Assembly (NCBI GenBank): GCA_042217585.1
Contig: JBDGSJ010000010.1
Location: forward strand, 1-24,365
Reading direction: 5' to 3'
DNA from: Candidatus Nanohaloarchaea archaeon
GTDB taxonomy: Archaea; Nanohalarchaeota; Nanosalinia; Nanosalinales; Nanosalinaceae
DNA length: 24,365 nucleotides
In this document: in pieces, positions 1,237-24,162 of the stretch
How positions within the stretch are numbered: the stretch's first letter is position 1
How the letters are laid out: each line of letters starts with the position of its first letter
Notes under the pieces: model-generated
The model's database searches: none
What the model was told of the DNA's origin: nothing
The model's input: only the letters and a program-made list of their open reading frames with translations
Translations under genes and position numbers: made by a program

Positions 1237-1521
1237 GTGGCAACTGAAGAAGAAGTTATAGAGGCGGCGATCGAGAAGGAGGCGGACACTCTGGGAGAGG
1301 GCACCGCGTACAAGTACGCCAGGGAGGTCGAGGGCCTTGAGATCGATGAAGATGGGAACGTCACGTCTATAGACGGCGATACCCAGCAGATACTTGCCAA
1401 CCTGGTCCTCAAGTACGTTGACTATGCCGGAGATATCTCAGCGACGCTTATAGCCCATGAGCTCTCGGAGACGGACACGGAAGGTGTGGATCTGCCGCCG
1501 ATGATCAAGAACAAGATGTGA
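1237..1521 (+). CDS. Small acidic hypothetical protein; one copy of a domain repeated twice in 2473-3432
   Basis: 94-aa ORF with upstream TATA-like element. The pattern EEVIE..IE....LG.GT...Y..E..GLE...DG...LV..Y...G...VDLP recurs in the downstream gene. Confidence 0.8.
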   Translation: MATEEEVIEAAIEKEADTLGEGTAYKYAREVEGLEIDEDGNVTSIDGDTQQILANLVLKYVDYAGDISATLIAHELSETDTEGVDLPPMIKNKM

Positions 1522-2415: not shown

Positions 2416-2438
2416 ATCCGGAGATCGGCGAATCGTTA

Positions 2439-2448
2439 CACCTTTATT
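2439..2448 (+). promoter_or_regulatory. Archaeal BRE/TATA-like promoter of 2473-3432
   Basis: CACCTTTATT ~30 nt before ATG; similar elements at 1189 and 1529. Confidence 0.55.
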
Positions 2449-2472
2449 CCTGTGGCGGGAACCTCAAACAGG

Positions 2473-3432
2473 ATGAACCAGAACGGCGAAATCCTCGAGG
2501 AAGTCATAAAGAACGCTAAAAGGGATCTGGAACCCGGAAAGGTCTCCGAGATACTCGAGGAGCTGGACGGTCTGGAGACCTCTGATGGAGGTATCGAACG
2601 GATGACCCGGGACCCGTCGGACGTCTTCCAGGACCTCACCGACGCCCTTGTGTCGGAGTTCGGGGCCGATGCGAGGGAGACCGTCAGGGAGGCGCTCGAG
2701 GGAGCAGAGACCTCTGAGATCGACCTCCCAGCGTTCGCCAGGGAGACGACTCACAGGCTGGTAATCGAGGAGATAATCGAAAGGGAGCGAGAGGTCATAC
2801 AGGGTGGGTCCGGAACAGGCTTCCAGATAGTGTCCCAGATCGACCGTTCGGACAAGCAGGAGAACCTTCCGGCTATAACCACTTCCACGCTCGGAACAGC
2901 GGAGAGGGCGGCTGAACGCCTCGCGCTGGGGGATTTCCAGGACCTCTTCATAAGGACCGACGAGGGAAAGGTCGTGATCGTGAACGCGGGACGCGGAGAG
3001 GCCATGACCGTGCTGATGGACCAGGACGTGGAGGACGGCCTGGTCAGGACCGGGATACAGGAGACCGTTGACAGGATAAAGGACCACCAGTCCCGTGGAG
3101 AGATGGAGGAAGTGAGGGAGGAGGTCGAGGAGCTCCGGAAGAGCTACGACGGCATAAGAGGGGTCAGCCTTGTCAACTTCGACGTCAACGATTACGTTTC
3201 AGAGCTCCACTTCGTGGAGGAGACCGGTGAAGGCGTAAAGGTCTCGGAGGGCGTCGGGAGAAATGAGGTCGAGGAACTGGTCGACCATTTCCTCCAGTTA
3301 CAGGGGGACGGCGCCTACGGTATCGCGAGAGGGGTCCTTGACAGTATAATGAGCCCCGAGGATGACATCGATCTACCTGCCGAGATAGTGCCGCGTCGTA
3401 TCAAGGAAGAGAGGTTCGTCAGCAACTTCTGA
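2473..3432 (+). CDS. Multidomain protein: two copies of the 1237-type domain, the second interrupted by a circularly permuted Roadblock/LC7 (MglB-like) domain
   Basis: AITTSTLGTAERAAERLALGDFQDLFIRTDEGKVVIVNAG...TVL......GLVR is the Roadblock core. The Roadblock N-terminal helix and strand (MEEVREEVEELRKSYDGIRGVSLVNFD) follow it instead of preceding it. ATG 2473 lies ~30 nt after TTTATT at 2443. Confidence 0.8.
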   Translation: MNQNGEILEEVIKNAKRDLEPGKVSEILEELDGLETSDGGIERMTRDPSDVFQDLTDALVSEFGADARETVREALEGAETSEIDLPAFARETTHRLVIEEIIEREREVIQGGSGTGFQIVSQIDRSDKQENLPAITTSTLGTAERAAERLALGDFQDLFIRTDEGKVVIVNAGRGEAMTVLMDQDVEDGLVRTGIQETVDRIKDHQSRGEMEEVREEVEELRKSYDGIRGVSLVNFDVNDYVSELHFVEETGEGVKVSEGVGRNEVEELVDHFLQLQGDGAYGIARGVLDSIMSPEDDIDLPAEIVPRRIKEERFVSNF

Positions 3433-3472
3433 CCCCGCCAGTATTTAAACAGGGTTCGGTAAACTCTCCTTG

Positions 3473-4177
3473 ATGGGTTTCGAGGCCTACACCCCTCTGC
3501 TCGACGGAACTATAGCTCTCCTGTGCTTCCTGAGGCTGTGGACCGTCTACAGGAGGGAGGGGGCCGAGTCACACCGGTACTTCGCGAAGTTCTTCCTCTT
3601 CTACGGCCTGTTCTTCATTACGATAGCCCTCCCTGCTTACATCGGGGGGCTGAGGAACTTCGGTGTGGCGGATGCGGCCTGGACCACGTTCTCTACCGAC
3701 TCCCTTCTGCTGTTCTTCATAGCGGGCCAGGGATTCTTCCTGGCAGCCCTTGCGTACTTCTCGCAGGTCCCGCTCCACATAATCAGGCCGGAGTGGAAGG
3801 AAAAGGTCTTCAGGCTGAACCTCGGGATGATCTTCGTCATCCTCCCGGTCAACCTGCTGTTCTTCAGCATGCCGGCGGAGGAGGGATTCGCGGCCATCTC
3901 CACTCTCTCACTTCCGATGGCCCCGGTTTTCGGTCTTCTCCTGCTGGGACAGATGGTCCCGGGCATCCTTCTGTTCGGAAAGATGGCGTACGACAGGTCC
4001 GGCACCGACCGTATGAAGATGGCCCTGCTGTCGGTAGGACTGCTGATACTGACGGTGTCCGGACCAATGCACAGCATCGTTTCGGAACCCGGCCTGTTCA
4101 TACTCGCCAGCGGGTTCACGATAACGGGCACTCTGACGACCTTCGCGGGAGTCTACCTGAACCGCGTGATGGAGTGA
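3473..4177 (+). CDS. 7-TM membrane protein, putative sensor domain (HisKA_7TM-like topology) without fused output domain
   Basis: Seven hydrophobic segments counted by eye. TTTAAA at 3444-3449 suggests a leaderless start. No Lys in helix 7, so not a rhodopsin. Confidence 0.7.
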   Translation: MGFEAYTPLLDGTIALLCFLRLWTVYRREGAESHRYFAKFFLFYGLFFITIALPAYIGGLRNFGVADAAWTTFSTDSLLLFFIAGQGFFLAALAYFSQVPLHIIRPEWKEKVFRLNLGMIFVILPVNLLFFSMPAEEGFAAISTLSLPMAPVFGLLLLGQMVPGILLFGKMAYDRSGTDRMKMALLSVGLLILTVSGPMHSIVSEPGLFILASGFTITGTLTTFAGVYLNRVME

Positions 4178-5877: not shown

Positions 5878-6279
5878 ATGGATGAGACAGACCGTGAAAT
5901 ACTCCGGATACTTGAAGAAAACGGCAGGAAGTCGTACACCGAGATATCTGAACAGGTCGGGGTATCAGAGGGCACGGTCCGGAACAGGGTCCAGGACCTG
6001 AAGGACCGCGGCGTCATTGAGAAGTTCACGGTGGAGGTCCGGGAAGAGGAGGAGATGTCCGCGTTCGTCGCCGTCGAGATAGGAACGGAGTCCGACCCCT
6101 CGGAGATATACGACGAGATCTCGGACGACTTCGAGGTGTTCGAGGTCGCCGGACCGCTGGACGCCTTTGTCAGGGTCCGGGGAGAGAACTCCGCGGAGAT
6201 CAACCGGGCGGTGGACAGGATAAGAGCGGTTGACGGGGTCAGCTCCACGGAGACCTACATGGTCCTCAACCGGCGGTAG
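5878..6279 (+). CDS. Lrp/AsnC family transcriptional regulator
   Basis: MDETDREILRILEENGRKSYTEISEQVGVSEGTVRNRV HTH, plus C-terminal RAM domain (EVAGPLD). Confidence 0.95.
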   Translation: MDETDREILRILEENGRKSYTEISEQVGVSEGTVRNRVQDLKDRGVIEKFTVEVREEEEMSAFVAVEIGTESDPSEIYDEISDDFEVFEVAGPLDAFVRVRGENSAEINRAVDRIRAVDGVSSTETYMVLNRR

Positions 6280-7420
6280 TCCAGATCTCGTCTCTCTCGT
6301 TCAGGTAGAGTTCCATCGACTGGCGGGCGGTCCACGTCGCGCCACGCCTCAGGTTGTGGCTGAGGGTCTTCATCGATACTTTTCTGGGCGTCAGCTGCCT
6401 TATATCCGAGACAGCTATCGCCATCCCCTCGCCCTCGAAGACGTGTTCCCGGGGCTCCACCGTCTCGTCAAGGACCACGAACAGCTCATCGGGGGTGGAG
6501 GGCAGTTCCCGGACCTGTTCCGGTACACTGTAGTTCTCCAGGCTTTCCCGGACCTGTTCCGCGGACGTCTGTTCTTCGAACTCCAGGGTGACGCATTCAA
6601 GGTGGCCGTACTGCGTGGCGATCCGGTTGGTCTGCGAGAACACCGGGGTTATGGAATCCGGTTCCCTTCCTTTCCTCAGGCCGCGGTATTGGTCCACCGC
6701 CTCCTCTCTCGATTTCACGTTGCCGAGTATCTTCTGCGGCTCTGTCTCCGACTTCACTTCCTCGCCGTTCGGGGTCTCCGGGCCCCAGTCATCCCTCGCG
6801 TTTCCTACTATCCGTTCACGGTAGCTCTCCTCGGCGATCCTGTCGCCCTTCCCTGAGATCGCCTGGAGAGTGGTCAGCCGGACCTCCCGCACCCCGTCGA
6901 CAGCGTCAAGGACCGGGGTAAACCCCGCTGTTGTGCAGTTCGGGTTGTTGGCCTGGACCCCGGGAGTGTCCTGCGCCTCCATCCTTTCGACGTGTCCTGG
7001 GTTCACCTCGGGTATGAATAGCGGCACGTTTTCCTCCCACCGGAACTCCGAGGCATTGGAGAACACGTTGACGCCGCGCTCCCGGAGCTCCGGCTCGATC
7101 TCCCTGGCCGCTGAGCTGGGGACCGCACATATCACGCAGTCGACCCGTTCCGCGATGACCCCGGGGTCCGGTTCGACGAGTTCCATACCGGCGTACTCTT
7201 CCGGACATTCCCTGGGCTCCCAGAAGCTGTAGGCCTCCGAGAGGTCCTCCTCCTTTTCATTGAAGACCTCTCCAAGCTCTCTGCCCGCGGAGCCGGGCGA
7301 ACCCGCCACGAGTTCAAGGTCCGCGTAGCTGTGCCCGTTTTCCTCCAGGATTTTCTGGTGTATCACGGCCGATCTCCCGGCCATACCTGTCGCACCGATT
7401 ATACCGAGCTTTATTCCCAT
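6266..7420 (-). CDS. asd: Aspartate-semialdehyde dehydrogenase (divergent, archaeal-type)
   Basis: GIIGATGMAG, SNASEFR, VPLFIPEVNPGH, catalytic NPNCTT, QAISG, GH and HNLRRGA. Confidence 0.92.
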   Translation of the reverse strand: MGIKLGIIGATGMAGRSAVIHQKILEENGHSYADLELVAGSPGSAGRELGEVFNEKEEDLSEAYSFWEPRECPEEYAGMELVEPDPGVIAERVDCVICAVPSSAAREIEPELRERGVNVFSNASEFRWEENVPLFIPEVNPGHVERMEAQDTPGVQANNPNCTTAGFTPVLDAVDGVREVRLTTLQAISGKGDRIAEESYRERIVGNARDDWGPETPNGEEVKSETEPQKILGNVKSREEAVDQYRGLRKGREPDSITPVFSQTNRIATQYGHLECVTLEFEEQTSAEQVRESLENYSVPEQVRELPSTPDELFVVLDETVEPREHVFEGEGMAIAVSDIRQLTPRKVSMKTLSHNLRRGATWTARQSMELYLNERDEIWTTAG

Positions 7421-7429
7421 AGTACCGTT

Positions 7430-8602
7430 TCAGAAGTTCTCCTGCAGCACCTCGAGCGCCTCTTCTCTGTCACTCCAGTCCACGAAAAGGGCGACGCTGC
7501 TGGCGCTGGTTATGATTTCGTGAAGCTCGACCCCTCTCTCCCCGAGATGTCCAAGTATGTCCTCGAGTTCCGAGACGTCCGACGGCAGTTCCGGCGTGAC
7601 AACCCTCAGGACCGCTATACCTTCCTCGACGGTCACGCTGGACAGCGGGTCGTTTTCCACGACCACACTGTGGAGCGCCCTCTTCGCCTCCTCGCTGGCC
7701 TCTTCATCGACGTAGAACGTGACGCTGTCCATCCCGGTCGAGGTCGAGTCGATGTTTATCCCGCGGTCCGCAAGGGCGGTGGACAGGTCCGAGAGTATCC
7801 CTTCCCTCATCTTGAGTGCCCGGCCCGCAAGCGTCAGGCAGGCGAGAGGCTGCTCCCTCATGTCGATAAGGGATTCGAACCGGCCCTCGACCGCAGTCCC
7901 GGTCCTGAGCAGGTCCCCGTGCTGGTGGTGGACCACCTTCACGTCAAGGTCCTCGCTCTCGTACTCGAGCGCGGCGGGCGCGACCACCTCCGCACCCCGG
8001 AGTGAAAGCTCCCTGAGCTCCTCCACCGTTATGCTGTCAAGGTTCTCGGCGTCGTCCACCACCGCAGGATTCCCGGTCATGATACCTTCAACGTCCGTAA
8101 CTATGGCTGTCTGGTCAGCGTCCATGTAGTTCCCGAGCATCACGGCCGTGGTGTCGCTCCCCCCGCGGTCCAGCGTGGCAACGGAGCCGTCCTCCACCCC
8201 GATGAAACCGGGAAGGACAAGGACGCGCTCCTCAAGCTCTTCCTCCAGTTCAGCTGCTTTCCGCCGGGTCTTCTCCCGGTCCACGTCTCCGTCCTCGATC
8301 ACCACGGGCCAGTCCGGGTCTCCCGGCTCCACGAAACGGGAATCAACGTCCAGAGAGTGCAGCGCGGCGTTCAGCATCCTTATACTGGTCCTCTCGCCCA
8401 TCCCGAGTATCTCGTCACGGTCGGTCTCGCCGGCGTCGAACTCCATCTCCTCCAAGAGTTCGTCGGTAGTATCACCCATCGCGGAAGCGACCACGGCGAC
8501 CTCGTGTCCCTCCTCCACCGCATCCCTAACTGCTCTCGCGGCTCTCATCACCCTCCTGCCGTTTCCGAGGCTGGTTCCCCCGAACTTCGCGACGATCCTC
8601 AT
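7430..8602 (-). CDS. lysC: Aspartate kinase with two ACT domains
   Basis: MRIVAKFGGTS, SAMGDTTD, TLDRGGSDTTA, TDVEG. True start at 8602 overlaps the lysA stop (ATGA); the ORF-track extension to 8830 lies inside lysA. Confidence 0.95.
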   Translation of the reverse strand: MRIVAKFGGTSLGNGRRVMRAARAVRDAVEEGHEVAVVASAMGDTTDELLEEMEFDAGETDRDEILGMGERTSIRMLNAALHSLDVDSRFVEPGDPDWPVVIEDGDVDREKTRRKAAELEEELEERVLVLPGFIGVEDGSVATLDRGGSDTTAVMLGNYMDADQTAIVTDVEGIMTGNPAVVDDAENLDSITVEELRELSLRGAEVVAPAALEYESEDLDVKVVHHQHGDLLRTGTAVEGRFESLIDMREQPLACLTLAGRALKMREGILSDLSTALADRGINIDSTSTGMDSVTFYVDEEASEEAKRALHSVVVENDPLSSVTVEEGIAVLRVVTPELPSDVSELEDILGHLGERGVELHEIITSASSVALFVDWSDREEALEVLQENF

Positions 8603-9840
8603 GTTTCTCCCTCCAGGTCCGTGCCGTGGAAAAGGTCCTCGACCTCCTGCCTTTCCCGGATCAGTCTGTGGTTGCCGCTGTCCACTATCACCTCGGCGGG
8701 AAGCCTCCGCGTGTTCCAGTTGGACGCCATCGAGAATCCGTAGGCCCCGGTCTTTTCGATAGCCAGTATATCGCCCTGCTCGAGCCGTGGAAGCTCCCGG
8801 TCCTCCGCCAGAACATCCTCGCTGGAGCATACCGGTCCGACCACGGTCTTCTCCCCTCCATGCTCTCTTTCATCGCTGACAAGCGAGACAGGGTGGTATG
8901 CGTCGTGGAGCGCGGGTCTTATCAGGTGGTTCATGCCTGTGTCCACGCCGACAAAGGTCTTTCCCGACTCCTTCACACCGGTCACCCGTGTCAGGAGGTA
9001 GCCGGCCTCCGCTACGAGGTACCTGCCCGGCTCGATCCGGAGCTCCGGCTCGCCGATACCGGTCTCCTCCACGTACTCCTTCAGGACCGAGGTCACGCCC
9101 TCGGCTACTCTCTCCACGTCTAGGCGTTCCTGCTCCGGCCGGTAAGGTATTCCCAGTCCTCCCCCGATATCGATGAAGGAGAACTCTATCCCGAGTTCCC
9201 GGGAGACCTCCGCGGCAATGTCCAGCAGTTTTTCAGTTATCTGTTCAAAGTACTCCGCGTCCCTTATGTTGGAGCCGGTCATCATGTGGATGCCGAACTC
9301 CTCGACCCCCCGGTCCTTTGCCTTCCTGTAGGCCTCGACCACGCGGTCCTCCGGGACGCCGAACTGCGAGTTATCTCCAGCGAGGACCAGTCCGAACTCT
9401 CCACGGCCCTGGCCGGGGTTCACCCTGAAGGAGAGCTTCTCCGGGACCTCATCCATCTTTTCAAGAAGATAGGCGGAGTTCAGGTTAATGGTCACGTGGT
9501 GTTCACGCGCCGCCTCAAGCTCGTCCTCCCGGTTGAAGAGCCCGGTGTACAGGACCCGGTCCGTGGCTTCCAGCTCCTCTGCAAGCCTCAGCTCCGGGAT
9601 GCTGGCGCAGTCAAGATGGGCTCCGATATCGAGCATGGTCCGGACTATCTCGGGGTTCGAGTTCGCCTTCACCGCGTAATGTACGCTGAAATCCGGGTAG
9701 CGGGAGTCGAAAGCCTCCTCAAGCTCTGTAAACCTCTCCTGGATAACATCCCTGTCGTAAACGTACAGAGGTGTGTCGTATTCCTCGACGAGTTCAGATA
9801 CCGGGACGCCGCCGATGTATTTTTCGCCGTCTACTCTCAC
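8599..9840 (-). CDS. lysA: Diaminopimelate decarboxylase
   Basis: TPLYVYD, YAVKAN (PLP Lys), DIGGG, EPGRYLV, GPVCSSED and GAYGFSMASNWN. Confidence 0.95.
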   Translation of the reverse strand: MRVDGEKYIGGVPVSELVEEYDTPLYVYDRDVIQERFTELEEAFDSRYPDFSVHYAVKANSNPEIVRTMLDIGAHLDCASIPELRLAEELEATDRVLYTGLFNREDELEAAREHHVTINLNSAYLLEKMDEVPEKLSFRVNPGQGRGEFGLVLAGDNSQFGVPEDRVVEAYRKAKDRGVEEFGIHMMTGSNIRDAEYFEQITEKLLDIAAEVSRELGIEFSFIDIGGGLGIPYRPEQERLDVERVAEGVTSVLKEYVEETGIGEPELRIEPGRYLVAEAGYLLTRVTGVKESGKTFVGVDTGMNHLIRPALHDAYHPVSLVSDEREHGGEKTVVGPVCSSEDVLAEDRELPRLEQGDILAIEKTGAYGFSMASNWNTRRLPAEVIVDSGNHRLIRERQEVEDLFHGTDLEGET

Positions 9841-10580
9841 TGTTCAAAAACCTCATCGAACGTGTAAAAACCTGTTCCCCGGTCCTGAAGCCACTCCGCG
9901 GCCTCGACCGCTCCTGCGGCGAAGACGTTCCGGGACTCGGACCTGTGCCGCAGGGTGAGGACCTCGTGGTTCCCCGCCAGCAGGACCTCGTGCTCACCTC
10001 TCACGTCGCCGGCTCTCCGGGCATGGACCCCGATCTCTCCCTCCTCACGGGGCTGTTCCCCCTCCCTTCCGTGCGTCCTTCCCGACGTCTCGATCTCTTC
10101 CTCGATATCCCTGACTATCTCGAGTGCAGTCCCGCTCGGCGCATCCGTCTTCCCGTTGTGGTGCGTCTCCGTCACCTCGACGTCGTAGCCCGGGACCGAA
10201 CTCACCGCCTCCCTGACCGCGTTCCTCAGCGCCTGTATCCCGGGTGCAAAGTTAGAGGCCTTCAGGACAGGGACAGATTCCGCCGCTCCCTCAAGCACGC
10301 TTGCCTGTTCATCGTCCAGTCCTGTCGTCCCGGTCACGAACGGGACTCCGGCCTCTGAACAGGTCCTGGCGAACTCGACGGTCGCTGAGGGAGCCGTGAA
10401 ATCTATCAGAGCGTCCGGGTCCTCTTCCTGGAGGAGTTCCCGGAGTCGGTCCACATCTTCCACTTCTGGTTCCTCCGGTTCGACGTCCACGGCGAAGGCA
10501 AGTCCGTGCTCACTCTTCTCGATCTCCTCACGGACCTTCCTTCCCATCCGGCCCTCCGCTCCTGTCACAGCGATCTCCAT
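9837..10580 (-). CDS. dapB: 4-hydroxy-tetrahydrodipicolinate reductase
   Basis: GAEGRMG, IDFT, GTTG, ETHHNGKTDAPSGTA and GEHEV. Confidence 0.96.
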   Translation of the reverse strand: MEIAVTGAEGRMGRKVREEIEKSEHGLAFAVDVEPEEPEVEDVDRLRELLQEEDPDALIDFTAPSATVEFARTCSEAGVPFVTGTTGLDDEQASVLEGAAESVPVLKASNFAPGIQALRNAVREAVSSVPGYDVEVTETHHNGKTDAPSGTALEIVRDIEEEIETSGRTHGREGEQPREEGEIGVHARRAGDVRGEHEVLLAGNHEVLTLRHRSESRNVFAAGAVEAAEWLQDRGTGFYTFDEVFEQ

Positions 10581-10585
10581 TCTAA

Positions 10586-11527
10586 CTACCTCAGCCCGTA
10601 CCTGTCAAGTACATGTTCGAGTTCTTCACGGTTACGGTACTCTCCGTCCTGCCTCGGCCTCCTGTCCAGTGGCGCTCTCGGCGTTCCGAAGTCGAAGCCC
10701 ATCAGGTTCAGGGCGTACTGGACAGATATCGGGTTCTTCTCTCCCGGCTGGAACATCGCCTCGTGGAGGTCCATGAGCTCACGGTTCCTCTCGTAGGCGG
10801 CCTGGTGATCCCCGTTCACGTACCCCTTCTCCCAGACCTCCACGGTCCCGGAGGGGTGGACGTTGCCGGAGACGCTGATAGCGAAGCTCCCGCCCTGTGA
10901 AAACACGAAATGGTTCGCGGAGTCGTCTCCTGAACCGAGCCTGAAATCCAGGTCACGGGAACGGAGCCTCCTGCCGATCTCGTGTATCTGCTCGTAGTCC
11001 AGCGAAGCCTCCTTCAGGCCCGCGACGCCGTCGATCTCGGCGATCCGGAGCGCGGTATCCGGCTCGATATTCCTGCCGGTCCTGCCCGGCACATTGTACG
11101 CCACGATAGGCAGCTCAAGCTCCTCCGCCAGCCGGCGGTAATGCTCCACTATCAGGTCCTGCGGCGGACAGTTCTGGTACGGGGAGATCATCAGGTGGGC
11201 ATCGATGTCCGCCTCTTCCTCCACGCGGGACGCGAGCTCCAGGGTCTGGGCGGTCGAATTCATCCCGTCCCCTGCGATCACCGGGAGGTCCGTCATCCCT
11301 GCGAGGCGGGAGACGAACTCGACGTGCTCTCCGAGAGTGTCTCCGCGATCCCCAAGGGTCGCCGCGTGTCCGGTGCATCCAGCGGGGACTATCCCGTGGA
11401 CACCGTTCTCCTCCAGGTACCTGATATGTTCCTCCGCCGCGGCGTAATCTATCGACCCGTCCCCGTCGATCGGCGTGGGGAGGGCCGGGAATATTCCCTC
11501 GAGCTCGAACCCGGGCATCTCTCTCAC
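10586..11527 (-). CDS. dapA: 4-hydroxy-tetrahydrodipicolinate synthase
   Basis: PALPTP, GCTGH, YNVPGRTG, Schiff-base Lys in GLKEAS, SGDD and NPI; adjacent to dapB. Start may be GTG 11527 or the ATG three codons later. Confidence 0.88.
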   Translation of the reverse strand: MREMPGFELEGIFPALPTPIDGDGSIDYAAAEEHIRYLEENGVHGIVPAGCTGHAATLGDRGDTLGEHVEFVSRLAGMTDLPVIAGDGMNSTAQTLELASRVEEEADIDAHLMISPYQNCPPQDLIVEHYRRLAEELELPIVAYNVPGRTGRNIEPDTALRIAEIDGVAGLKEASLDYEQIHEIGRRLRSRDLDFRLGSGDDSANHFVFSQGGSFAISVSGNVHPSGTVEVWEKGYVNGDHQAAYERNRELMDLHEAMFQPGEKNPISVQYALNLMGFDFGTPRAPLDRRPRQDGEYRNREELEHVLDRYGLR

Positions 11528-12054: not shown

Positions 12055-12215
12055 TCTCCTTCCTCGCGAATGGGAAAGGGTAAAGATGGTCTTCACCTAC
12101 CGCCTGGCCCCATTCTTTTTTATTTCCGGCTGTCGCTCCAATGTGGTATGGGGTTCAGATCTGCCCGGAGAGGTCCGGGAACGGAACGACTGGTTGTCGC
12201 GGGTGAGTGTATCCC

Positions 12216-14174
12216 ATGACCTGTTCCTACTCGTTCGATCCGAGCGAACATCCCGACGCGGGAATCGATGTCAAGTGGGACTGCCCTCATGAGCCGGTCG
12301 AGGGCGCGGACCGCTGTATCTTCCACATGGACGAGGAGACGAGGAGGAACCACGGTATATCCAACGAGGACATCCAGAGGAAGATAATCGAAAACCTGAG
12401 CAACGGTGAGGAGGAGAACGAGTACGTCGGTGCTAAGATACCCAAACTGGTTTTCAACTACGAGACGGTGGAGGGGTCGACGACCCACCCTATCAACTTT
12501 CAGCACGCCGAGATAGGTGAGTTACAGCTCCAGAAGTCTCAGGTGGAGCAGGGTGTGGACCTCACCCACGCCAGGGTGGGGAAGATGATAATAAGGAAGG
12601 CGGAGCTGAACGGAACTTTCCGCCTGAACTACGCCACGGTAGAGGGGAAGATCGACGCCTTCGAGACCTCGTTTAACAATTCCTTCCGGGCGAGGAACGC
12701 CGAGTTCAGGGATAAGGTGAGCTTTGATGAGGCGTTCTTCAACGAAGAGCTGAACCTCCAGAACGCGGAGTTCCACGGTGAGGCGAGCTTCCAGGTGGCG
12801 GAGTTCTCGGGAAGAAGCCACAGGACCGACGACAACAGTGATTTCACGTCCGCGGTCTTCAGGGACCAGGTCCTTTTCGACGAGGCGGAGATGAAGCACT
12901 CCGATTTCACGGATGTCGAGTTCAGGGGTGAGGCGAGCTTCGAGGAGACCGTCATAGAGGGGGACGTGCTTTTCAGCGGGGCCGAGTTCAGGGCTAAGGC
13001 GGATTTCTTCCGGACCCGTTTCAGGGAGAGGACCGAGTTCGAGGCTGTCTTCTCAGAGTTGGCGAGGTTCCAGGAGGCGAGGTTCTACAGCGATGCGGAG
13101 TTCGACGGGACGGTGTTCGAGGACCACGCCGATTTCGACGAGGCCCGTTTCTACGAGGATACGAGTTTCAGGGAGGTAAAGTTCACTACGGCGGAGTTCC
13201 GTGGTGCCGAGTTCCAGGGTGAGAACAAGCACCTGGAGGACTCCGCGGTCTTCGACCAGTCGACCTTCGCGGGGAAGGCGGATTTCGACAACGTCGAGTT
13301 CACCTCCGCAAGTTTCCAGGATGTCCGGTTCGGGGATACGGTGGATTTCCGGAAATGCAGTTTTGACCGAGCGGATTTCGAGGTCTATCCGATAGACACC
13401 GACATCTACGTCGATATGACGGGTGCGAAGATCTTGGACGGTGTGATAAAGCAGACCGCGAAAGGTATCGTGCCCTACGACTTCACACGTGCTACGCTTG
13501 GCGATGTCAGACTGACCGGTGAGACCAACCGCCTGGAGCTCCTGGACCATTTCAGGTTCTGCCTGACTGAGTTCGACGGTTTCGATTTCGCGGAGCACCA
13601 CGACTACCTGGAGCGGAACGACTGGAAGATACACGAGTTCGTCGAGAACCAGGCCGAGATAGAGTACAGCGAGCACATGACGCCGGAGGTCACGGAGAGG
13701 ACCTACCTAAAGGCTCAGAACTCTGCGCAGGAGAAAGGCGACAAGACCGCCACTGCGGCCTTCGAGCTGAAGAGGAACAGGTACAACAGGAGGAAGAACA
13801 GGATGATGGCTCTGGATACCAGTGAGCCTCTCTCGCTGGTGACACGCGCCAAGAAGATGGGGGGTGTGATCGGCAACCAGTTCATGGACTGGACCTGCGG
13901 TTACGGCACAAAGCTCTTCAGGATCACAGCTCTGACGTTCGTGACCCCGATATTCTTCGCCCTGCTTTACCTCCAGCGGGGAGTATTCAGGACCCATGCC
14001 AAGGGTTTCGGGGACGCCCTTTACTACAGCTACATAACTTTCAGCTCGGTCGGCTACGGCGACATCTCTCCGCTCGCACCGGGCTCCAAGGTCCTCGCTT
14101 CGGCCGAGGGAATGCTCGGAGGGCTTTTCATAGCACTGTTCATCTACACGCTCAGCAAGAGGGTGGATTACTGA
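12216..14174 (+). CDS. Pentapeptide-repeat protein with C-terminal potassium-channel (Ion_trans_2) domain
   Basis: N-terminal C..CPH..CIFH motif, long A(E/D/S)F pentapeptide array, and pore signature YYSYITFSSVGYGDISP between TM helices. GGGTGA SD before ATG 12216. Confidence 0.9.
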   Translation: MTCSYSFDPSEHPDAGIDVKWDCPHEPVEGADRCIFHMDEETRRNHGISNEDIQRKIIENLSNGEEENEYVGAKIPKLVFNYETVEGSTTHPINFQHAEIGELQLQKSQVEQGVDLTHARVGKMIIRKAELNGTFRLNYATVEGKIDAFETSFNNSFRARNAEFRDKVSFDEAFFNEELNLQNAEFHGEASFQVAEFSGRSHRTDDNSDFTSAVFRDQVLFDEAEMKHSDFTDVEFRGEASFEETVIEGDVLFSGAEFRAKADFFRTRFRERTEFEAVFSELARFQEARFYSDAEFDGTVFEDHADFDEARFYEDTSFREVKFTTAEFRGAEFQGENKHLEDSAVFDQSTFAGKADFDNVEFTSASFQDVRFGDTVDFRKCSFDRADFEVYPIDTDIYVDMTGAKILDGVIKQTAKGIVPYDFTRATLGDVRLTGETNRLELLDHFRFCLTEFDGFDFAEHHDYLERNDWKIHEFVENQAEIEYSEHMTPEVTERTYLKAQNSAQEKGDKTATAAFELKRNRYNRRKNRMMALDTSEPLSLVTRAKKMGGVIGNQFMDWTCGYGTKLFRITALTFVTPIFFALLYLQRGVFRTHAKGFGDALYYSYITFSSVGYGDISPLAPGSKVLASAEGMLGGLFIALFIYTLSKRVDY

Positions 14175-22992: not shown

Positions 22993-24162
22993 TTATTCCT
23001 CGGTAAATACCTGCGTCACCATGGTCTGGTTGTGGACTCCGCATTCCTCGCTCGGAAGAGCTATCTCTCCGTATGTGTACCATCCGATTACTGGTGTGTC
23101 CTCGCCGACGACCTCCCGGACCGCCTCTATCTCCTTCTGCCTCATCTCGTATATCTCTAGGCAGTTCCACCGGCAGACGCAGTCGTGCAGTATGACGGCG
23201 CTGATCTCGTCTTCATCCGGGTTGCCTGCGGCCTCGACCGCGCTCCTCGCGGACTCTCTCGCGGCCTCTATGATCGATTCCCTGGGGCTGTCCATAACTG
23301 TCACCGTCTCTCCCTCCGTGACCTCTCCCGCGAACGCTATGCTGTCTCCGTTGAGCGAGAGAGGGTTTCTCAGCCTCATCGATCCATCGCTCAGTTCCAT
23401 GCCGAGCGGCTTTGTCATCAGGAACTCCGGCCTCTTGATTTCATCTCCGAAAAGCTCCCTGTATATCTCTGCGGCAGGCCTTCCGTCAAGCTCGTGAACG
23501 ATGTTGCCTGAGGAGTTCGTCACAACGTGTCTCTGCCTCGAGGGCTCGAGGCCGTGCCGCACCCCGTGTCCGATTCTGCTTCCGGTCCTTATACCTACAA
23601 CGGAAACCGCGTCCGAAAGGAGTTCATCTCCATCAATCACGTAGCTTTCCTCCATCTTCCAGTCGTCCCCGGCGAGACCTCCACAGCCCTCAGCCTCCCT
23701 GCCGATCACCTCCTGGACTCCTCTCATGACCTCGGAGCTGTTGCCGGTCATGCTGGTGGAGAAAACCGTGTAGTATATCCTTTCGTCGGCTTCACCCAGT
23801 TCCTCATGCAGTCTCCGGGACGCGGTCCTCCCGGCTTCCCTGGGGTCTCGGGATATCTTCTTCCCGACGCCTCTACCTACCTCAAGGTCCTCACCAGAGA
23901 AGCCAGCCATCACCACGCTGTTCCTCTGGATTCCCTCTACACTCGATATCTCGCCTCCGGTTGAGCATCCTGCGACGACAGCATCTTCGATCTCTTGGTT
24001 TATGCCCCGAAGGAGATCTTCATCAGTCCTGTTCGAACCTGAGAAGACAAAAACCAGTTCGGGGGAACCGATATCATCCTTGATGCTTGAAGATACCTCT
24101 TTTCCCGCGGTGAAGCTATCTTCAGATTTCGAGTGAGCCACAGAAGAGTCCAGCCGTCCCAT
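22993..24162 (-). CDS. Stand-alone FIST (FIST_N + FIST_C) sensory protein
   Basis: GCSTGGEI, GGLAGDD, VTNSSGNIVHELDGRPA, DCVCR, GWYTYGEI and HNQT. Confidence 0.93.
   Translation of the reverse strand: MGRLDSSVAHSKSEDSFTAGKEVSSSIKDDIGSPELVFVFSGSNRTDEDLLRGINQEIEDAVVAGCSTGGEISSVEGIQRNSVVMAGFSGEDLEVGRGVGKKISRDPREAGRTASRRLHEELGEADERIYYTVFSTSMTGNSSEVMRGVQEVIGREAEGCGGLAGDDWKMEESYVIDGDELLSDAVSVVGIRTGSRIGHGVRHGLEPSRQRHVVTNSSGNIVHELDGRPAAEIYRELFGDEIKRPEFLMTKPLGMELSDGSMRLRNPLSLNGDSIAFAGEVTEGETVTVMDSPRESIIEAARESARSAVEAAGNPDEDEISAVILHDCVCRWNCLEIYEMRQKEIEAVREVVGEDTPVIGWYTYGEIALPSEECGVHNQTMVTQVFTEE

Follow-up and report, generated by a model that had tools for sequence, protein, structure and literature searches.

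Streptomyces conservon operons bring together a membrane sensor, the Roadblock protein CvnB, a DUF742 protein and a small GTPase, and engineered switches make use of inserted, circularly permuted domains, as in sensors based on circularly permuted green fluorescent protein (cpGFP). The accessible part of PMC3747258 describes Roadblock domains as dimeric platforms for small GTPases, and describes longin and Roadblock as circular permutations of each other, a helix having moved between the ends. Insertion and permutation of domains can co-occur, RNA polymerase insertional domains being cited as examples in the available text of PMC13114784, where inserted domains are also reported to have close termini (median 14.3 Å versus 29.8 Å); PDZ is the most commonly inserted domain and has four permuted forms, according to the available text of PMC13552848. 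Here we analyse a 24,365-nucleotide (nt) stretch of a small salt-lake archaeon, Candidatus Nanohaloarchaea archaeon (assembly GCA_042217585.1, contig JBDGSJ010000010.1, positions 1 to 24,365, hereafter the window), and describe an open reading frame (ORF) of 326 codons, starting at position 2452, that very probably encodes a fixed, translated architecture free of any mobile element. In this architecture, a small acidic domain (A-type) is followed by a second domain (H), inside which a complete, circularly permuted Roadblock domain (the block; nt 2818-3183, residues 123-244, in frame) is nested, and a gene for a membrane protein (M) lies directly downstream. A search of the literature on Roadblock, circular permutation and longin returned only papers on the longin/Roadblock relation, and none describing a Roadblock that is cut at the beta1/beta2 turn or that lies within a second domain; the word 'roadblock' is absent from the accessible portions of PMC13114784 and PMC13552848, and 'longin' from that of PMC13552848.

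The block has its fold, its sequence family and its glycine positions in common with free-standing MglB-like Roadblocks (PF03259; 9jue, 7f8m, 7yh1, 3kye, 6hjm), and differs from them in being rotated at the beta1/beta2 turn and nested in another domain. Longin chains likewise align to the structural model of the block through its tail helix; unlike longin, the block is opened between beta1 and beta2, carries beta1 last and resembles Roadblock in sequence. Permuted and inserted PDZ domains and the insertional domains of RNA polymerase follow the same principle, with a different fold, host and lineage. The logic of cpGFP-type switches (adjacent ends, a fold placed in a loop, possible coupling) also applies to the block, which differs in being natural and in that its coupling is only proposed. 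Conservons likewise link a membrane protein, a Roadblock and a small uncharacterised protein at the level of the operon, and the cvnB5 structure 3leq_A is among the sequence matches to the Protein Data Bank (PDB) and the structural matches of the block. Unlike in conservons, H has no DUF742 match, no match identifies M as a histidine kinase, and no GTPase gene is adjacent.

The block begins with GGC TTC CAG, ends with AAC TTC GAC and comprises 122 stop-free codons with an internal ATG at 3103 (M218), just as stated in the first-pass annotation, which was made from the sequence without database searches. The Pfam family Robl_LC7 (PF03259) matches the whole protein with 29.1 bits and the block with 32.1 bits (cut-off 23), and the match is limited to profile positions 28-90 (or 35-90) of 91; by comparison, a free-standing Roadblock of a relative is matched over positions 6-91 with 68.6 bits. 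Likewise, PDB Roadblocks align to residues 120-210 from about their own residue 28 onwards (7f8m_A, E 1.8e-5). Since both the Pfam and the PDB matches start at about position 28, alpha1 and beta1 are absent in front of the core. The canonical order alpha1-beta1-beta2-alpha2-beta3-beta4-beta5(-alpha3) is not what the block follows: profile positions 1-27 are found behind the core.

To locate the missing elements, we used a hidden Markov model (HMM) of 19 free-standing Roadblocks, 16 of them from the source genome and its relatives and three from elsewhere. The core alone (residues 123-214) scores 75.5 bits and the block in its native order (residues 123-244) 76.1 bits, whereas moving residues 215-244 ahead of the core yields 93.8 bits in one domain spanning model positions 6-118, a gain of 17.7 bits over the native order. 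The first-pass annotation had named the comparison of the rejoined sequence with the core alone as a check of its proposal, and the rejoined order is clearly the better one. None of 500 shuffled tails placed before the core reaches this score (mean 77.0, standard deviation 2.0, maximum 84.8), and other 30-residue pieces of the protein placed there score at most 86.4 bits. Among all 122 rotations of the block, the best begins at residue 214 (94.1 bits), and a start one residue before M218 gives 93.5 bits. A second HMM, built from six distant Roadblocks only, rises from 80.8 to 98.4 bits on re-ordering, which again none of 500 shuffles reaches, and has its best rotation start at residue 213. In the HMM alignment D244 and G123 are joined without a gap at the beta1/beta2 hairpin, and the invariant glycines and one alanine of the Roadblock family are kept in the block (alignment A3). 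In the register of the HMM, residue 213 is the last Roadblock position and residue 214 is position 1, which puts the original C- and N-terminal ends head to tail with no linker between them. The block represents a permuted form of the Roadblock/LC7 domain, opened at the beta1/beta2 hairpin turn and ordered beta2-alpha2-beta3-beta4-beta5-alpha3-alpha1-beta1.

The structure of the block alone was predicted with AlphaFold from an alignment in which 18 Roadblock rows cover only the first ~92 residues and none covers the tail. The model has a predicted local distance difference test (pLDDT) value of 86.4 and a predicted template modelling score (pTM) of 0.79, and consists of strand 4-8, helix 12-34, strands 42-46, 51-56 and 61-67, helices 73-92 and 96-109, and strand 113-120. 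The tail, without alignment cover, is predicted as helix 96-109 and strand 113-120, with pLDDT values of 93, 95 and 90 in three sets of ten residues. In a VIA-align run against 48,161 chains, the top match is 9jue_D (Z 11.4; root-mean-square deviation (rmsd) of 1.4 Å over 92 residues), and further matches include 3kye_A (Z 10.5), MglB 6hjm_A (Z 10.0) and 7f8m_A (Z 9.9), the rmsd for solved Roadblocks at Z 9.9-11.4 ranging from 1.4 to 2.0 Å. The block is thus modelled as an alpha/beta sandwich like that of solved Roadblocks, and the top Foldseek matches are Asgard Roadblocks. The VIA-align alignments pair model residues 2 to ~93 with each Roadblock chain from its residue ~30-40 onwards.

With longin chains, the alignment extends over model residues 1-111 or 1-112 (Z 7.5-8.2), and the last longin helix is equivalent to Roadblock alpha1 according to the available part of PMC3747258. 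Because the longin alignment reaches model residues 111-112, the tail helix can be assigned to the position of alpha1. The block is not itself a longin, as its first strand lies at the C-terminal end and the longin alignment stops at ~111. Together, the two Roadblock HMMs, the block model with its folded yet uncovered tail, and the fold matches bear out the proposal of a permuted Roadblock. The cut in the hairpin sets the new N- and C-terminal ends side by side, as needed for nesting in a loop.

The host domain, H, is a family of ~100 amino acids (aa) found only in nanohaloarchaeal hypothetical proteins. An all-against-all HMMER comparison gave 16 proteins at E up to 0.001, of which seven are free-standing H proteins of 71-107 aa that align to residues ~246-326 from their own residue ~23 onwards, and one (P0009, 330 aa) carries its H domain behind a membrane domain resembling the ORF at 3470-4177. 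A profile of ten H sequences finds 18 proteins, all without a Pfam domain; the named ones are hypothetical proteins of Candidatus Nanohaloarchaea or Nanohalobium. At E up to 1, the H family has no Pfam match, to DUF742 or otherwise, apart from stray hits below threshold, and at E up to 10 it has no relative among PDB sequences. For one free-standing H protein (P0020), the ESM Atlas holds a model with pTM 0.77, whose structural neighbours are ~92-aa hypothetical proteins of Saccharimonadota (template modelling (TM) score ~0.7) and clusters of HNOB or V4R (TM ~0.6); these fall below the bar for naming and serve as a lead only.

Consistent with an interrupted host, the two flanks of the block align as one H domain when the block is removed. 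The C-terminal flank (residues 245-326), which contains the G-x-G-A-x-G-I-A-R and D-L-P motifs conserved in the H family, scores 78.9 bits alone with the H HMM, and the joined flanks (residues 97-122 and 245-326) score 86.9 bits in one domain at positions 3-103, with the motifs aligned. None of 500 shuffled first-helix pieces joined to the flank reaches 86.9 bits (mean 79.4, maximum 86.0). A full-length match with the glycine turn and the G-I-A-R and L-P motifs is obtained only across the insert, the DNA as it stands giving positions 26-103. Deletion borders from 117/244 to 122/247 all score ~89-90 bits, and the alignment after removal of the block has a four-residue insertion and one deletion at the host junction. 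The first-pass annotation had held that the host is restored with no spare residues; its flanks indeed align as one domain, and the four extra residues and the deletion show that the restoration is inexact. The interruption of H falls directly behind the conserved glycine turn following its first helix, and the glycine/serine-rich stretch at the end of residues 97-122 probably acts as a linker.

A second host-family profile leads to the same split. An A-type HMM built from 25 sequences matches the joined flanks as one domain with 30.6 bits and the native chain only in pieces of 2.6 and 17.7 bits, and its positions 5-20 map to residues 102-117. The same HMM identifies residues 9-95 as a complete copy of the family that includes the ORF at 1237. 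That this ORF is a distant paralog, as first suggested, is upheld by an H-profile match with E 4.3e-7 and by the A-type HMM, with its matches to the N-terminal domain as well as to the rejoined flanks; a direct BLASTP comparison of this ORF with the protein is not significant (E 7.5). We also observed that small acidic domains of the A/H type are multi-copy, with seven matches at E up to 1e-5 in the source genome and numerous others in relatives, that no Pfam family covers them, and that the copies looked at (window 1237-1521; L005 1486-1764, minus strand; L006 1486-1758, plus strand) each lie beside an ORF for a small membrane protein. The paralog at 1237 is followed by two such ORFs (1574-1978 and 1975-2382).

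Next, we compared the locus with related genomes. H-profile matches occur in 18 of 70 genomes of the order, the source genome included. Eight H loci in seven of the 69 other genomes were set apart by scores of at least 94.8 bits over nearly the whole profile, a split made after the scores had been seen; the next class scores 50 bits or less, and the copy in the source genome 75.6 bits over positions 26-103. An ortholog comparison had been recommended by the first-pass annotation: in none of the eight loci does an insert interrupt H, and flanks and block in one frame were found in none of 40 related genomes. The H profile finds no other high-scoring copy in the source genome, a bin that is 89.7% complete, so that absence is not proven. 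A word-index protein search returned only the protein itself at near length and nothing among shorter proteins.

Three of the eight loci (G035, G052 and G006) have a 121-aa Roadblock gene directly upstream of H, abutting it or overlapping it by 4 nt, and in G035 the Roadblock-H pair is flanked by M homologs (118.6 and 113.8 bits). M-H fusions occur in P0009 and in an ORF of L017 (1165-1734 in minus-strand numbering, equal to L043 1495-2064), which supports a functional connection of M with H; in P0009, the M part has a weak DUF981 match of 27.6 bits, under the cut-off of 29. The setting typical of the H family, with M and, in some genomes, a Roadblock gene nearby, is also found here, M lying directly downstream at 3470-4177. 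Roadblock, H and M are separate neighbouring genes in relatives, and Roadblock and H form one chain beside M in the window. The positions of all these elements are given in the table.

Table. Features of the chimeric gene and its neighbours in the window.
Feature	Positions (nt)	Strand	Description and basis
Whole ORF	2452..3432	+	326 aa from GTG 2452; A-type domain, then H domain split by the permuted Roadblock
N-terminal A-type small acidic domain	2476..2736	+	residues 9-95; 34.4 bits, A-type HMM positions 2-88
First helix and glycine turn of host H	2740..2817	+	residues 97-122; H HMM positions 3-25 once the block is removed
Roadblock core, beta2 to alpha3, canonical order	2818..3090	+	residues 123-213; Robl_LC7, PDB sequence matches, AlphaFold, VIA-align
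Displaced Roadblock alpha1 and beta1	3091..3183	+	residues 214-244; HMM gain when put before the core
Rest of host H domain	3184..3429	+	residues 245-326; H HMM positions 26-103, matches to P0005-P0014
Membrane protein M, multi-pass	3470..4177	+	235 aa; directly downstream; usual neighbour or fusion partner of H
Free-standing A-type paralog	1237..1521	+	94 aa; H profile E 4.3e-7; row of the A-type alignment

The publicly available gene call begins instead at ATG 2473, for a product of 319 aa. By eye only, an A/T-rich, TTTATT-like stretch lies at window positions 2425-2445, ~30 nt before this ATG; it would be in keeping with an archaeal promoter and with the start that gives the shorter product of 319 aa.

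Several observations weigh against the nested architecture. In the collections searched, the fused form is present in one genome lineage only, as a single cluster member. The tail on its own finds no Roadblock match in Pfam. In a tree of cores, the branch leading to the block measures 3.4 changes per site and falls outside the clade formed by the local Roadblocks, and the grouping of the block with P0018 is weak (82/72). Models of the whole protein are poor (single-sequence AlphaFold, pLDDT 39; ESM Atlas, 319-aa form, pTM 0.37), and the flanks are assigned to one domain around the insert on sequence profiles. The tail strand would pair in the sheet between beta2 and beta5, as judged from its strand state and its high confidence in the model. 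The putative docking to M, the GTPase platform and the allostery discussed below are inferred. Furthermore, the displaced strand is assigned with more certainty than the helices: beta1 by itself contributes 12-14 bits, to which the tail helix as alpha1 adds 5-6 bits and helix 99-116 would add 3-4, and in MAFFT alignments restricted to H sequences, the first helix of H is paired with the tail helix (residues 215-236), avoiding the gap of 122 residues.

These last points bear on a linear fusion of Roadblock followed by H, in which alpha1 would correspond to helix 100-117 and the first H helix to helix 218-231, and beta1 (~234-244) alone would have moved, leaving the domains interleaved twice. 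The gene order in relatives is indeed Roadblock then H, abutting, and with helix 99-116 set ahead of beta1 and the core, the score is 91.8 bits, only 2 below that of the true tail (94.0 versus 98.4 bits with the distant HMM). The host profiles point the other way: helix 215-233 brings the H HMM to 78.8 bits, compared with 78.9 without it, whereas residues 97-122 add 8 bits, and the A-type HMM also sets the first helix at residues 102-117. In addition, the native stretch 97-214 gains nothing on the two Roadblock HMMs (75.2 and 80.7 bits), the summed scores are 170.6 bits versus 180.7 for the nested arrangement, and there is no simple mutational route by which a strand would be deleted and then re-inserted 100 residues downstream. 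We consider the linear fusion unlikely. Beta1 lies behind the core under the nested and the linear arrangement alike. When Roadblock and H sequences were aligned jointly, MAFFT wrongly superimposed one family on the other for all input sets used; by hhalign, the two families are unrelated (probability 3.3%).

An assembly chimera arising from metagenome misassembly, or a decaying, non-functional gene remnant, could also account for a protein that is the single member of its cluster, on a single contig, in the protein collection, and whose source genome is a bin with 38 contigs totalling 0.98 Mb. Run X1, possibly the origin of the window DNA, has contigs that cover the stretch whole, and a second sample (X2), from the same study, has contigs spanning 2044-2880 and 3052-3214 that bridge the borders at 2817/2818 and 3183/3184, the right border by exactly 31 letters; run X3 gave short, unlike pieces only. 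The border-spanning check called for by the first-pass annotation thus comes out, on contigs, in favour of a genuine join. The frame is open over 326 codons with a coding-like GC content at third codon positions (GC3) of 0.75, and the fold-determining positions of both domains (the glycines, one alanine and the H motifs) are kept despite deep divergence. A misjoin, moreover, would not yield a nesting that is in frame and precise to the domain. Chimera or decay is very improbable on this evidence.

The locus itself bears no mark of a mobile element. No direct or inverted repeats beyond chance-size matches bracket the borders, at best four of eight helix pairs of a bulge-helix-bulge (BHB) motif form at the junctions, and the pairing between junctions (-11.6) is weaker than in all 261 control windows. 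Robl_LC7 is the only Pfam or NCBIfam family detected in the block, which begins with Gly and ends with Phe-Asp before Val, and hence no sign of an intein; no recombinase family was found in the protein or in the window ORFs scanned. The block has a GC content of 0.60 and a GC3 of 0.80, resembling the rest of the gene, and the contigs of the three runs, which cannot show rare forms, contain neither an empty-site nor a circle joint. Excision of the 366-nt block as a DNA circle, or its splicing as a circular RNA, either of which would leave an intact H gene, had been offered by the first-pass annotation beside a fixed insertion and would suit the integrated-circle topology (the length of one Roadblock gene with its stop, a linker-free internal join, a gapless hairpin junction) and the frame that stays open after removal of the block, yet it finds no support in contigs of two samples that carry the integrated form, nor in a core so diverged from other Roadblocks that the event is probably old, and is the least credible of the explanations. 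The fixed natural insertion of a permuted Roadblock, the most conservative of those first models, is the one that the two Roadblock HMMs, the two host-family HMMs, the block model, the fold matches and the uninterrupted homologs favour.

How the nested architecture arose is suggested by the length of the block. Its 366 nt equal the length, stop codon included, of free-standing Roadblock genes (1016-1381 of L010, 1489-1854 of L003 and 1597-1962 of L004), and because it is exactly one gene length, we infer that it derives from a head-to-tail Roadblock unit, either tandem genes or a circle. The arrangement is no rotation of the Roadblock-H order of relatives, so simple read-through fusion cannot explain it. 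A bolder proposal, which we rate as speculative and rather doubtful, is that one 366-nt period was captured in a single step into the first loop of H, so that permutation and insertion happened in the same event, and that the resulting chimera is a natural allosteric switch tying M to a Roadblock platform. The source unit of such a capture would be a circularised gene, or abutting tandem copies whose stop became a sense codon; the genomes searched showed no pair of Roadblock genes in tandem. The one-gene length, the linker-free alpha3-alpha1 join and the gapless hairpin fit a one-step capture, and would be less expected from two independent truncations.

The block core is only ~33% identical to any Roadblock found, the three free-standing 121-aa Roadblocks of the source genome included, and those three are 59-84% identical to Roadblocks of relatives; none of them adjoins an H gene. 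This low identity and the long branch indicate that the event is old, or that fast change followed it.

In terms of function, the chimera is most likely a membrane-proximal adaptor, with a putative docking of H to M and a Roadblock part that would recruit or regulate a partner such as a small GTPase. Specifically, H would contact M, the Roadblock part would serve as a dimerising platform, and the nesting would fix the two parts together. The direct link between the turn of H and the hairpin of the Roadblock could, in addition, couple the conformations of both parts. A scan of 21 ORFs in the window turned up no GTPase family. When the Roadblock of a relative was modelled in complex with the H protein encoded next to it, the prediction scored 0.14 against a mark of 0.32, which is evidence neither for nor against an interaction.

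Two ORFs near free-standing Roadblock genes were noted in this context. A 388-aa ORF (L003 1909-3075, minus strand), beside the free-standing Roadblock at 1489-1854 on contig 22 of G000, has by eye a Walker-type P-loop stretch in its C-terminal half, and may be a candidate for a GTPase-like partner. A 438-aa ORF (L004 291-1607, plus strand) overlaps the start of the free-standing Roadblock gene at 1597-1962.

Elsewhere in the window, the ORF at 22996-24162 (minus strand) encodes a protein with FIST N and C domains (E 1.5e-40), and that at 12207-14174 (plus strand) a protein of 655 aa with pentapeptide repeats (six stretches, E 1.7e-36) and a C-terminal Ion_trans_2 pore domain (E 3.2e-12). Positions 6266-11527 (minus strand) hold a run of lysine/aspartate-pathway genes for aspartate-semialdehyde dehydrogenase, an ACT-domain aspartate kinase, DapB and DapA, which stands out in a ~1-Mb genome from a lineage regarded as metabolically reduced.

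The chimera offers a natural example of a rule followed by engineers, namely that a domain whose ends lie near each other can be housed in a loop of a second domain, and that circular permutation at a hairpin achieves this closeness. Natural cases that combine permutation with insertion are rare; the combination itself is already known in nature and the present form comes from one lineage, and what is new is the permuted, nested Roadblock. The separate, translationally coupled Roadblock and H genes of relatives provide, with the fused gene, a before-and-after pair for studying the origin of the nesting and the effects of fusion. More broadly, the locus points to an uncharacterised nanohaloarchaeal module made up of M, small acidic H/A domains with at least seven copies in each genome, and Roadblock, which may constitute a signalling or trafficking-like system in these reduced symbionts.

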